Source: an uncultured bacterium (GTDB lineage Bacteria > Babelota > Babeliae > Babelales > Vermiphilaceae). From it: 64,000 nt of DNA. The notes beneath the pieces are model-generated. The model had not been told where the DNA came from. It made no database searches and worked only from the letters and a program-made list of their open reading frames with translations. Numbering within the stretch: the first letter of the stretch is position 1; the number at the start of each line of letters is the position of its first letter. The DNA lies in assembly GCA_963707655.1 (NCBI GenBank), contig OY970172.1, positions 256,001 to 320,000 of the forward strand. Direction: 5' to 3'. The translations under genes and the position numbers were made by a program. Shown here one piece after another: positions 59,531-62,601 of the stretch.

Positions 59531-59562
59531 AGTTGCTGAAATAGACCGATAGGGCGCACCAG
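59531..59562 (+). repeat. Direct repeat left half (filled site)
   Basis: AGTTGCTGAAATAGACCGATAGGGCGCACCAG, 31/32 identical to 62537-62568. Confidence 0.9.
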
Positions 59563-60061
59563 CCTACGCTCCAAGAGAGCTCCGGCTGGCGGTGCCAACA
59601 CTTGAGGAAAAAGAGCCACGATTGATAGCAAGAAGCGTAGGCTGTCCGCCGTAACTTGCCAAGCCGGAAGGCATGGATAAGTGCAGGCTGGACTGGCTGG
59701 CCACTCATGAAGCAAAATAGTTGCAGTCTTTATCTCACATACTTCAGTTTTCGAAAAATGGCATGTATTTTGTCTATATAATTCAATCTATTAATCATCC
59801 AGACCAAGTATATGTTGGAAAAACAACGAATCTAAAGAAGCGCTTATCTGATCATAACTGCGGAACTACTGCGCACACAGAAAAATATAAGCCTTGGAAA
59901 TTAGTAGTATATATTTGTTTTAATGATCAATTAAAAGCAATTGAATTTGAGAAATACCTTAAATCCGGCTCAGGAAGAGAGTTTAGGAATAAAAAGATTG
60001 CTATAGCTTGTGAGAGCGAAGACAGGCAAGCTTCGTCTGACTTACGTCAACAGCTCCCCTC
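59563..60061 (+). mobile_element. Putative ~500-bp hairpin plus GIY-YIG insertion element
   Basis: REP-like double hairpin (59559-59700), GIY-YIG ORF and hairpin remnant (about 60000-60045); absent from the homologous site at 62537-62601. Confidence 0.6.
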
Positions 60062-60086
60062 TTACCCATTCTTTGCATCTTCATAA
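59763..60086 (+). CDS. Small stand-alone GIY-YIG nuclease (YhbQ/UPF0213/SLX1-like)
   Basis: MYFVYIIQS...YVGKTTNLKKRLSDHN...KPWKLV...FEKYLKSGSGR. Confidence 0.92.
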   Translation: MYFVYIIQSINHPDQVYVGKTTNLKKRLSDHNCGTTAHTEKYKPWKLVVYICFNDQLKAIEFEKYLKSGSGREFRNKKIAIACESEDRQASSDLRQQLPSYPFFASS

Positions 60087-60091
60087 ATCCT
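60062..60091 (+). repeat. Direct repeat right half (filled site)
   Basis: TTACCCATTCTTTGCATCTTCATAAATCCT, 27/30 identical to 62572-62601. Confidence 0.85.
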
Positions 60092-60141
60092 TGGTATATC
60101 TACTAAGATTTTTTATAGGAATCTAACCTTTAGGAAGAGCT

Positions 60142-62043
60142 ATGAAGATTATTATTTTGATCAGCATTCTACTACAATCAGTAGCTATACAGGCGGTGCA
60201 TCCCAATAGAGAGTTAACAACAAACGGGGATACATCAACGCGAAATTACGGCATATCACACAATAGTTTTGATATGAATCGTGCTCAATATATAAAAAAC
60301 ATTGCCGGCATTAGTAATCATTCTTCTTTCACGCCCTCTCACATTACATCCGGAACATCAGCCTACACGATGTTGTATGAACCGCACAAATGCGCATCGT
60401 GGCAGGTAAATGACTACTGGAATGCGGTCGTTTGGGCATTCGGGCTTAAAGCACCAGTAGACAAAAATCACTACATTCCGTTCGGGCTACGCGCGTATGG
60501 CTATACCAATGATTCGCAGATTTTGTATATTCATGACGACAATATAATCCGTGTCATGAACAATGTGAAACTCTATGATTACGATAATTTCTGGCATTTT
60601 ATCAGTAGGTTTAATTTGTATGAAGATACCCTTCAGCGAATACTTAACGATAGCACGCAACGCACATTGCTTTCTCAAAAAGCGTTGCAGAAAATGCGGC
60701 AACAATGCGCGCGCATTACGGAAAAACAACTGGCAAAAGAGCGTGAGCAACGGCAGCGTGATCATGAAAAATCGGTACGTACATACTTTCAGAAAGAGTT
60801 GCCGGATACACAAGATTCAGTTAATGAGCAACAAGAATTGCATGAAATTGCCCATACATATAATTTGCATAACAAAAATCATTATGAAACTCGTCTGGCT
60901 GCGCTTGAAGATGTGGTAAGTAATAGCAAATATACCCATGAATCATACACTCTCGATGATGATGTGATGAGCTTGCTTTCGCAGTCAGAGTGTGATTCCA
61001 AACAGTATAAAACTAATTATGGCAATCAATTGCAGCAAGTCATTCACCGTGAATGCATCGATATCATCGCGCAGACAGCGCAGCTCTCTGCGCATTCTCC
61101 TCTGTATGATTATAAAAAATCATTAGTTGATTTTACTGATTCAGCCCGTTCATATAATCAAGAGGGCATATCTGGTAAGGCGATGCAGATTAATAATTTT
61201 TGTTACGCATTACTCGATTATGGCTCGGCCATTGTTGAGGGCATTGCCTGCGGCGTTATTGGCGCAGCTAAAGACATGATTAATCATCCAGTTCAAACAG
61301 CGTTGTGCGTTGTTGCCGGTGAATATGTGTTGGCCTATCAATTACTTAAAGTTACTACCAACCTTGTCTCTATTGGCATAAACTGTGCTTTCGATAAAGA
61401 AGCTGGATCGCAACAATGGCATGATTATATTGAGCCGATAACGAGTGTGATCAGCGCTATCAGTAATAAAGAGTTGACTCTGCGAGACGGCGTTAAAGGA
61501 GCCGTTGCCCTTGGCACCGGTATGTATGCGCAAGGTAAGATGCTTAAAGGGCTGAACTCTTTTTATAAGACAACACAAGCAAAAGCTCTTGAGTTCGCTA
61601 AAAATAATCCGTTGGCAACTCCTGCTGAGTATATGACTACTCCCGAGGGAGGATTGTTTAAAGCAATAAAAAAAGCAGCACATAATCAATCGGCTTATAA
61701 TGAAAAGACATCAATAAAAGGTTTTAACGGCCTTGCTAATAAAATAAGTATGAAGGGATTGATAAAGAAAAAGCGATTACCCACAAAAGGGAAAATTCGC
61801 TATGTTCCACCAAAAAAATTACATGTATCAGAGGGATTGCCAAGGGTTCCAATGCCAGATGGCTCAGAAGGAATTGTAGATAGATTTGGCAATATATGGA
61901 CACAAGGTGAAAGCCGAACCAAGGGTCAACCATTTGAATGGGATGTTCAATTGTCTGAACAAGGCAAAAGACAACTAGGATGGATGACTCGCGATAATAC
62001 GCATCTTAATGTTAGTTTAGACGGAAGGGTTACACACAAATGA
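60142..62043 (+). CDS. Secreted polymorphic toxin with C-terminal Ntox17-like predicted RNase domain
   Basis: Signal peptide; C-term LPTKGKIRYVPP...DRFGNIWTQGESRT.GQPFEWDVQLS...HLNVSLDGRVTH (ExD plus H). Confidence 0.8.
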   Translation: MKIIILISILLQSVAIQAVHPNRELTTNGDTSTRNYGISHNSFDMNRAQYIKNIAGISNHSSFTPSHITSGTSAYTMLYEPHKCASWQVNDYWNAVVWAFGLKAPVDKNHYIPFGLRAYGYTNDSQILYIHDDNIIRVMNNVKLYDYDNFWHFISRFNLYEDTLQRILNDSTQRTLLSQKALQKMRQQCARITEKQLAKEREQRQRDHEKSVRTYFQKELPDTQDSVNEQQELHEIAHTYNLHNKNHYETRLAALEDVVSNSKYTHESYTLDDDVMSLLSQSECDSKQYKTNYGNQLQQVIHRECIDIIAQTAQLSAHSPLYDYKKSLVDFTDSARSYNQEGISGKAMQINNFCYALLDYGSAIVEGIACGVIGAAKDMINHPVQTALCVVAGEYVLAYQLLKVTTNLVSIGINCAFDKEAGSQQWHDYIEPITSVISAISNKELTLRDGVKGAVALGTGMYAQGKMLKGLNSFYKTTQAKALEFAKNNPLATPAEYMTTPEGGLFKAIKKAAHNQSAYNEKTSIKGFNGLANKISMKGLIKKKRLPTKGKIRYVPPKKLHVSEGLPRVPMPDGSEGIVDRFGNIWTQGESRTKGQPFEWDVQLSEQGKRQLGWMTRDNTHLNVSLDGRVTHK

Positions 62044-62435
62044 ATTGCGAACCATACATCATCATACATTGCATTGCCTGGTTTGAAGAAAGTGTTGAAG
62101 ACAGATTATTAACTATTTTAAATGTATTTGTAAAAAATAATTGGCCTGCAGCATGTGTTCTTTTGAAGTCAAGTAAGCCATATTGGAAAATAGAAGGGAA
62201 GCAGGCAATCATATATGGTCTATACAACTTTGAAATGATTACTGTTAATGACTTTATTAAAAAAATAGATGTGCTATGGCACTATACTGAATCAATGTCG
62301 TATAGTGTTCCCTATAATTACAGCTATCAAGACGAAAGCGCTATATGGGACAAAGAAGATGAATCAAAAGAGATATTCTTTTTGCCAAGTGTTAGCTGGG
62401 CACACGTGTACACTGCGCAACGAAAACACAAATAA
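62040..62435 (+). CDS. Putative cognate immunity protein
   Basis: 131 aa, ATGA overlap with toxin stop, aromatic/acidic composition. Confidence 0.7.
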   Translation: MNCEPYIIIHCIAWFEESVEDRLLTILNVFVKNNWPAACVLLKSSKPYWKIEGKQAIIYGLYNFEMITVNDFIKKIDVLWHYTESMSYSVPYNYSYQDESAIWDKEDESKEIFFLPSVSWAHVYTAQRKHK

Positions 62436-62536
62436 CATACAAATGAAAGCTTTTTATTATCAGATATTGGAATATAAAATGTTATTTTCAAAAACCATTT
62501 TCTTGACCTGGCTGAGAACGCCAACTTCAAAAGAAA

Positions 62537-62601
62537 AGTTGCTGAAATAGACCGATAGGGTGCACCAGTCTTTACCCATTCTTTCAATCTTGATAAATCC
62601 T
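62537..62601 (+). repeat. Contiguous (empty) copy of the direct repeat
   Basis: AGTTGCTGAAATAGACCGATAGGGTGCACCAG-TCT-TTACCCATTCTTTCAATCTTGATAAATCCT. Confidence 0.9.

Follow-up and report, generated by a model that had tools for sequence, protein, structure and literature searches.

The region studied here is a 64,000-nt stretch of DNA (G000:C1:256001-320000, hereafter the window) from a single-contig genome of 1.09 Mb with 41% G+C. It holds a small GIY-YIG nuclease gene and the palindromic leader that precedes it, set between two short sequences, A and B, which are found a second time in the window joined almost directly to each other. Leader (about 200 nt) and gene (80 codons, SLX1/UPF0213 type) form a compact cassette whose usual home is directly 3' of the CCA of a tRNA or transfer-messenger RNA (tmRNA) gene, and the window copy sits at A, a tRNA-like, CCA-ended decoy in a spacer of a toxin-immunity array. 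In the feature list below, ORF stands for open reading frame and R1 for a covariance model of the leader built from 29 leaders (match cut-off E <= 0.05); L-numbers denote the loci or contigs compared, L176 being a metagenome contig.

59531..59561, plus strand: A at the filled site, a 31-nt tRNA-tail-like stub ending GGGCGCACCA, with CCA at 59559-59561
59562..59762, plus strand: cassette leader; R1 match at genome 315553-315658, E 6.1e-19; 199/202 columns identical to L176
59763..60086, plus strand: GIY-YIG nuclease ORF; PF01541, E 1.5e-17; family part 59763-59996
60005..60061, plus strand: 3' stump of an older hairpin, displaced by the cassette; 57 nt, the right part of complete hairpins
60062..60091, plus strand: B at the filled site, the start of the upstream region common to the toxin genes
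62537..62601, plus strand: A, TCT and B contiguous, the unoccupied junction; B is here a 30-nt stub only

Filled and empty A|B sites in the window and in close strains

The two copies of A (59531-59562 and 62537-62568) are identical at 31 of 32 positions and those of B (60062-60091 and 62572-62601) at 27 of 30. At 62537-62601 they are joined by TCT alone; at the first site they lie 499 bp apart (59563-60061), with the palindromic leader, the GIY-YIG gene and an older hairpin stump between them, and the break falls immediately 3' of the CCA at 59559-59561. The initial annotation had described this pair, a contiguous copy at 62537-62601 and halves about 500 bp apart at 59531-60091, and the alignments confirm it. 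The break was also rightly placed at the position where ORF-less leaders begin behind tRNA-Phe (15921 on) and tRNA-Arg (56175 on). A occurs seven times in the genome, and A and B are common to all seven spacers. Apart from the empty copy, all six carry a hairpin directly after the CCA; these hairpins are of at least three types, those at genome positions 1017446 and 315559 differing from the type at 1009337.

Comparison with close strains showed both states of the sites. L176 is 98.3% identical to window 61570-62571 over 1,002 nt, a segment that covers the end of the toxin gene, the immunity gene and the A at 62537. After this A, L176 continues with leader, gene, stump and B (identities to the window unit: A 31/31, leader 199/202, 3' part of the ORF 169/172, stump 58/59), and past B it enters a different toxin gene. 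L176 carries the unit at the orthologous A, so the site that is empty in the window is filled in L176. The reverse case comes from a related strain in run X2, where one soil-metagenome contig (depth 4.6, shorter side of the joint 35 nt, 88% likeness) connects the flank at 59523, which is unique in G000, with A and, directly beyond it, with B at 60062. This hints weakly that the X2 strain has an empty site where the window has a filled one.

Anatomy of the inserted unit

The leader opens with element (i), GCCTACGC (59562-59569), then a short inner stem-loop and element (ii), CTCCGGCTGG (59580-59589), which pairs back to CCA plus (i) with a 3x3 internal loop. The hairpin so formed, H1 (59559-59589), includes the upstream CCA (59559-59561). 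A small hairpin of the form TGGCnnnGCCA, reaching to 59597, shares the TGG of element (ii), ends in a new CCA and is followed by an AT-rich spacer. Element (iii), GCGTAGGCTG (59634-59643), is the exact complement of CA+GCCTACGC at 59560-59569. Next comes H2 (59644-59693), of the same design as H1 in inverted orientation, then a second small hairpin (59694-59703) and an untranslated stretch that reaches the ATG at 59763, 69 nt beyond H2. Folded as a single sequence, the leader gives local hairpins (z -2.0 as RNA, -1.9 as DNA). Rfam 15 assigned no family to it, in the window at the gathering threshold or at 14 loci at E <= 1; tRNA and tmRNA were the only plausible matches, and no known ribozyme was among them.

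At the other end of the unit, the family-length TAG of the gene directly adjoins the 57-nt stump. The hairpin of which this stump is the right part is complete between A and B in four or five paralogous spacers at genome 1006-1017 kb (among them 1006449, 1009418, 1012271 and 1014740).

The GIY-YIG nuclease

The encoded protein scores 64.1 bits on Pfam PF01541 (E 1.5e-17; Pfam's threshold is 22.6) over residues 1-72, and Y5, Y17, G19, R27, H31, N32 and E63 are invariant in 24 sequences including that of the window. The family is 80 aa long, with a mean column identity of 78%, and its closest members carry source names that point to Dependentiae/Babeliales. The window ORF has 107 codons from its ATG because of one extra A in the run at 59991-59995, a +1 frameshift at codon 78 that swaps RLL-stop for 27 extra codons. 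L175 and L176 (91% identical, the closest copies) and one X2 contig are without the extra A and end RLL-TAG after 80 codons. The last 27 codons are thus a product of the frameshift, and decay of the window copy appears to have begun.

The nearest solved relatives are SLX1 (PDB 7CQ2, E 2.3e-8) and the UPF0213 protein BH0048 (1ZG2, E 1.5e-7), followed by 1YWL (E 5e-4), and sequence similarity places the nuclease nearest the SLX1/UPF0213 branch of GIY-YIG. No C-terminal DNA-binding domain was found in the 80-aa family; the protein is a catalytic domain only, and therefore probably structure-specific. Since neither NCBIfam nor PADLOC gave a model above cut-off, we make no defence-system assignment. 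G000 has one other GIY-YIG match, in a 430-aa frame at 798 kb.

Codons 1-23 (window 59763-59830) are identical to L176 at only 54 of 68 nt, against about 99% for the rest of the unit, a mosaic patch that suggests gene conversion from another GIY allele. The ORF is also represented in a metatranscriptome, by contig X20 (235 nt, about 93% identity); this contig derives from a relative and may be DNA carry-over, and it was not used as evidence.

The cassette is found behind tRNA and tmRNA genes in many phyla

We compared G000 with 40 Babeliales genomes (41 with G000 included), calling a GIY-YIG match strong at E < 1e-10. A match was present in 27 of the 40 relatives and a strong one in 24, with up to 4 strong copies per genome, several of them with internal stops. 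Among the 51 strongest loci of these relatives, to which the analysis was confined (weaker matches were left out), 38 have a tRNA or tmRNA gene on the same strand at most 501 nt upstream. The 13 misses include four with less than 300 nt upstream; the other nine carry the leader, which in eight of them starts after a non-tRNA CCA. Results were similar for a set from many phyla, the best 80 loci out of at least 585 relatives (one genome per species scanned), in which a tRNA or tmRNA gene lies upstream in 68 and the same leader starts at the CCA. These 80 loci come from Dependentiae, many Alphaproteobacteria (Bradyrhizobium and Rhizobium among them), Rickettsiales, Verrucomicrobiota, Ignavibacteria, Planctomycetota, Omnitrophica, Bdellovibrionota and others. 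In metagenomes, the count is 46 of the 60 loci with enough upstream sequence (20 more were left out as too short). The occupied genes comprise tmRNA and at least 12 tRNA identities. The proposal that homologs of this nuclease would carry the same hairpins and tRNA 3' ends in their flanks is thus supported by all three sets. In the literature covered, which excludes subscription journals, we found neither a GIY-YIG gene nor a palindromic module described as having its fixed place behind tRNA CCA ends, and the cassette is apparently undescribed.

Leaders and gene also occur together across genomes: R1 finds leaders in all 25 genomes that have a strong GIY match, G000 among them, but also in 5 of the 16 that lack one, a comparison to be read with the caveats that R1 was built from gene-adjacent leaders, that each gene brings one leader and that the genomes are related. 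Leaders outnumber genes by 18:1 in G000 and by 28:3, 26:3 and 23:4 in other genomes. A gene for a Y1 transposase of the RAYT kind (REP-associated tyrosine transposase, REP standing for repetitive extragenic palindromic; PF01797) has 0 matches in G000, which extends its absence, first noticed in the window, to the whole genome; 7 of the 40 relatives have one. Leaders thus go with the gene, a partly circular result, and RAYT genes bear no relation to leader counts; both points support the interpretation first given.

In three relatives (L008, L006, L042), two or three tandem leaders lie between the tRNA and the GIY gene. Tandem duplication would fit this arrangement, and so would the successive entry of new copies at the CCA with which every small hairpin closes.

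The leader covaries with the CCA end

The 68 tRNA-adjacent loci among the best 80, chosen without regard to pairing, were used to ask whether the leader is complementary to its own insertion point. The reverse complement of CA+8, the CA of the tRNA end with the eight nucleotides after it, occurs with at most 1 mismatch within 51 of the 68 leaders, compared with 0 of 204 control 10-mers from the tRNA body, and 19 different CA+8 words are represented among the tested leaders. In alignment A3, 91.6% of the cells of the CCA-NNC:GNN-TGG helix pair, three of its pairs have substitutions in both partners, and neither the percentage paired nor the covariation score was matched by any shuffle. The (i):(iii) helix, which is also the RNAalifold consensus helix, pairs in 97.6% of cells; since the same pairing had served to select the units, this figure is circular, and the CA+8 test is the fair one. 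The two helices are mutually exclusive, and so are H1 and the small hairpin. Leader and CA/CCA therefore vary together as base-pairing partners.

ORF-less leaders at the tRNA genes of this genome

The motif NNCTN[CT]G directly follows the CCA of 20 of the 38 tRNA genes and of the tmRNA end in G000, compared with 170 of 31,154 CCA sites genome-wide, so that its association with tRNA CCA ends is not due to chance. The same 20 of 38 tRNA genes and the tmRNA gene bear ORF-less leaders or stumps. R1 has 21 matches in the genome: 16 behind tRNA genes (some as second trailer units), a further 3 at A sites and the remaining 2 elsewhere. This ties the family to tRNA ends; it is not dispersed in a REP-like manner. 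The genome-wide, REP-like hairpins of the initial annotation accordingly shrink to some 20 copies, nearly all at tRNA ends. Loose regular-expression scans for hairpins across the genome gave 248 and 252 matches, mostly chance, and R1 was used instead. Three members lie in the window:

15921..16062, plus strand: ORF-less leader after tRNA-Phe (15846-15920); R1 match at genome 271912-272012, E 1.2e-18
56175..56340, plus strand: ORF-less leader after tRNA-Arg(tcg) (56098-56174); R1 match at genome 312166-312267
34724..34842, minus strand: hairpin unit after tRNA-His (34843-34918, minus); R1 match at genome 290724-290851, E 1.8e-9

The long ORF-less leaders are 82-88% identical among themselves, but their identity to the ORF-linked leader is about 77%. 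At three tRNA genes, tRNA-Ser(gct), tRNA-Lys(ctt) and tRNA-Ser(gga), an ORF-less leader stands before an older stump, and some ORF-less leaders may have spread as such. The tmRNA gene (genome 970687-971091) was missed by ARAGORN; its presence is shown by an 84.7% alignment to the tmRNA of G001, a genome of the same genus, and by a typical 3' end.

Turnover at orthologous sites

At the tmRNA locus, G001 has leader and gene, and G000 has only TACTTCGTATGGCGAGCCA; the tmRNA genes are 84.7% identical and the downstream genes 67%. The G001 copy is 49% identical to that of the window, and a copy in another genus (G009) 76%.

A longer series of states was found behind tRNA-Ala in Bradyrhizobium, where 81 genomes were searched with a 1,001-nt query and ten loci with closely spaced flanking pieces were compared in detail. 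At least 16 of the 81 match the full query in one piece. Others have H1 alone (L165), a leader or hairpin together with the terminal 6-21 nt of the ORF and its stop (L166, L171, L172), or only (i):(iii) and H2 (L168-L170). Three leader subtypes (CG, AC and GC) occur at this one locus, and in L174 the gene behind a GC-type leader belongs to another GIY-YIG subfamily (starting MKYVYILESL...), the leader type therefore being common to more than one nuclease lineage. Homing-endonuclease genes go through a cycle of invasion, decay, loss and re-invasion, and the tRNA-Ala series is the one to be expected of them. The idea that ORF-less copies are mobilised in trans does not clearly hold here, as the tRNA-Ala copies with the last 6-21 nt of the ORF have decayed in place. 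The median ratio of nonsynonymous to synonymous divergence (dN/dS) of the Bradyrhizobium genes is 0.076 (36 of 45 pairs with usable dS). Five genomes outside the relatives set (two Bradyrhizobium, Methyloligella, Rhizobium and a further Dependentiae) have one strong copy each.

Older hairpins displaced by the cassette show where it enters. An older (ii) with small hairpin lies at most 160 nt after the ORF at 12 of 207 loci and in 0 of the control stretches 300-460 nt after the ORF. The displaced hairpin keeps its full 5' strand without the CCA in L059, L187 and L080 and is short by 1-2 nt in L095, L122 and L115; new copies thus enter between the CCA and the hairpin already in place. However, there is a second CCA at the end of the small hairpin, and the exact junction shifts by 1-2 nt from locus to locus.

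Toxin cassettes and other neighbours

Two genes between the filled and the empty site belong to the context and lie outside the cassette:

60142..62043, plus strand: Ntox17-domain toxin gene; PF15524, E 4.3e-28
62040..62435, plus strand: probable immunity gene; overlaps the toxin gene

The toxin (633 aa) looks secreted and has the Ntox17 domain at its C-terminus, a 131-aa ORF overlaps its gene, and the pair is bounded by A|B spacers. Four or five paralogous toxin cassettes form an array at genome 1006-1017 kb, about 690 kb away. In L022, from another genus, a GIY cassette likewise stands behind an Ntox17 toxin gene and its neighbour (L022:1-1163), as in the window.

CCA-ended stubs before non-tRNA cassettes fall into conserved 24-33-nt types common to several genera, roughly AAAGTTCGAAG...CAATGAG..CCGCCA and GAACGCGTCAA....CCA. 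Examples are window 59531-59561 and 62537-62567, genome ~244948 and ~236685 (both minus strand), L039, L046, L054, L186 and L206. None of these types is simply a resident tRNA tail that has decayed. A as the decayed 3' half of tRNA-Arg was considered and set aside, the agreement being limited to the last ~10 nt and similar stubs being kept between genera. Elsewhere in the window (57890-58338), a 53-aa ORF without a family comes after, and not before, a ParE-like toxin ORF (PF05016, E 8.2e-11); the two are possibly a toxin-antitoxin pair with reversed gene order.

A homing-like reading and its alternatives

On balance, and with some reserve, we favour the reading that window 59562-60061 is a copy of a compact, homing-endonuclease-like selfish cassette for CCA-ended tRNA-type 3' ends. 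The cassette would be transcribed by read-through from the tRNA gene, its putatively structure-specific nuclease would nick or cut the CCA|hairpin junction of unoccupied or decayed sites, and repair would then copy the occupied site, as in homing. The ORF-less leaders and stumps behind 20 of 38 tRNA genes would mostly be the remains of earlier copies and possibly also targets. A bolder proposal, which we put forward tentatively and regard as rather doubtful, is that of an autonomous element of ~350-450 bp, present across bacteria and made of the SLX1-like nuclease and the leader only, whose TGG and covarying dinucleotide pair with CCA and the junction and which would represent a new class of structure- or pairing-guided homing or transposition, with tRNA and tmRNA 3' ends and CCA-ended decoys as the places it colonises.

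Several observations weigh against the homing-like cassette. The identities of 82-88% versus about 77% indicate that the ORF-less leaders did not arise recently from the resident gene, and the older hairpin remnants after the ORF are rare (12/207 loci). We infer the role of the nuclease, and mobility driven by it, from linkage alone, and as far as its sequence tells, the protein lacks the DNA-binding domain that is present in known homing endonucleases. The single-sequence folds exceed shuffles in stability only modestly (z as given above), and the empty-site joint in X2 is a weak hint, from one contig with a 35-nt side and 88% likeness. Finally, the syntenic Bradyrhizobium copy (at least 16/81) under strong purifying selection also fits a host function, as does the single strong copy in five genomes, four of them outside Babeliales.

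A host function would mean that the hairpins are tRNA 3' trailers (terminators or processing signals) and the nuclease a housekeeping gene expressed with the tRNAs, the apparent spread being gene conversion among tRNA loci together with gene loss. Besides the dN/dS, the synteny and the single copies, the T-run often found after the small hairpin speaks for it, and so does the pairing of the leader with the CCA of a transcript of which it would itself be part. We nevertheless find it improbable: a strong match is absent from 16 of 41 Babeliales genomes, some of them at least 95% complete, the tRNA partner varies between lineages, pseudogenes and multiple copies occur, leader subtypes have been replaced at one orthologous locus, and in two genera the cassette is also found behind non-tRNA stubs in toxin arrays. 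Just as hard to favour is a mechanism like that of RAYT or IS200, in which the GIY-YIG protein would excise single-stranded DNA hairpin leaders and insert them 3' of CCA, guided by the leader TGG, with the ORF-less leaders as non-autonomous copies. It would suit an insertion that appears to lie 3' of a fixed trinucleotide without target duplication, the covarying TGG/CCA and NN pairing, the two hairpin modules in inverted orientation, a genome without a Y1 transposase, and ORF-less leaders that are more alike than any is to the ORF-linked one and that precede older stumps behind three tRNA genes. Copy numbers, however, are in the tens and not the hundreds, the ORF-less copies of Bradyrhizobium are in-place deletions, and the ragged breaks in displaced hairpins point to repair more than to a precise transposition. 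The chemistry of GIY-YIG enzymes is DNA hydrolysis, and none is known to form the covalent 5'-phosphotyrosine link by which HUH transposases transfer strands; a RAYT-like role is unlikely because this chemistry is not known to provide a covalent strand-transfer intermediate. From the REP/RAYT-like system proposed initially we thus retain the link of gene, hairpin and CCA, which is real and general, drop the dispersed family and regard the transposase role as unlikely.

For the filled/empty pair itself, it is possible, though less likely than not, that recombination of toxin cassettes and not movement of the GIY unit produced it. A circular or tandem toxin-immunity cassette with an A|B junction would recombine with a filled spacer (A-unit-B); a crossover in B would give unit, cassette and empty A-B, as in the window, and one in A would give empty A-B, cassette and unit, as in L176 and X2. 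A and B are indeed common to all seven spacers, both outer flanks of the ~99% identical unit differ between L176 and the window, L175 has a near-identical unit behind yet another cassette, and the only unoccupied A lies at the array end with a 30-nt B stub. This route still requires an unoccupied A|B junction somewhere, and it leaves unexplained both the different hairpin types after the CCA of different A copies and the general tRNA-end pattern. The pair fits equally well with a unit that moves from one A|B site to another, whether through homing or through gene conversion over the flanks of 30 nt.

If the homing-like reading is true, the cassette would be among the smallest self-contained mobile elements, one 80-residue nuclease with a folded leader, spanning Dependentiae to Bradyrhizobium at the highly conserved CCA end of tRNAs. 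It would explain the look-alike hairpin trailers on many tRNA genes in small genomes, give a role to the very common and unstudied genes annotated as 'GIY-YIG nuclease family protein', and might reveal target recognition by hairpin pairing in a minimal nuclease, of interest for nuclease engineering. What the window would add is that CCA-ended decoys in toxin arrays are also used, and that near-identical strains differ in which decoy is occupied.

Comparison with known systems

A tRNA-targeting integrase island does not match the locus: no integrase was found among eight ORFs scanned around the site, the unit has one 80-codon ORF, and the likeness of A to a tRNA-Arg tail is limited to its terminal ~10 nt. 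REP and REPIN sequences are hairpin repeats, in hundreds of dispersed extragenic copies, that go with a RAYT (Y1/HUH) transposase. The cassette resembles them in its GC-rich imperfect palindromes in inverted pairs and in having many gene-less copies to one linked nuclease gene; it differs in that there is no Y1 gene, the ~20 copies lie nearly all at tRNA 3' ends and the enzyme belongs to a different superfamily. With IS200/IS605 it shares subterminal hairpins and may share a fixed short target without duplication and pairing-based target recognition. Unlike those elements it has no TnpA or TnpB, its target is CCA at tRNA ends, and it encodes a GIY-YIG hydrolase and nothing else.

The nearest relatives of the nuclease domain are SLX1, UPF0213 and YhbQ, of which SLX1 recognises branched and hairpin DNA by its structure and cuts it. 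The cassette protein has no RING/PHD domain and no known partner, and its fixed position behind tRNA genes was found in no description of those families.

In T4-like phages, the gene for SegB lies within a tRNA gene cluster. The Seg family of these phages consists of free-standing GIY-YIG homing endonuclease genes (PMC13096335). The cassette is like the Seg genes in having a stand-alone, intron-less GIY-YIG gene next to tRNA genes, in being present in some related genomes and absent from others, and in its rounds of invasion and decay. Presence/absence of the Seg/I-TevI type is seen for tmRNA in G001 versus G000, for tRNA-Ala in Bradyrhizobium, and for the A sites versus L176 and X2. The cassette differs from Seg and I-TevI in that its 80-residue protein consists of the catalytic domain alone and is chromosomal in many bacterial phyla, and from Seg in its conserved palindromic leader that pairs with the CCA end, its insertion exactly 3' of CCA and a cleavage that is putative. 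Although the protein is without a DNA-binding domain, we lean towards regarding the cassette as a variant of the free-standing GIY-YIG homing-type elements.

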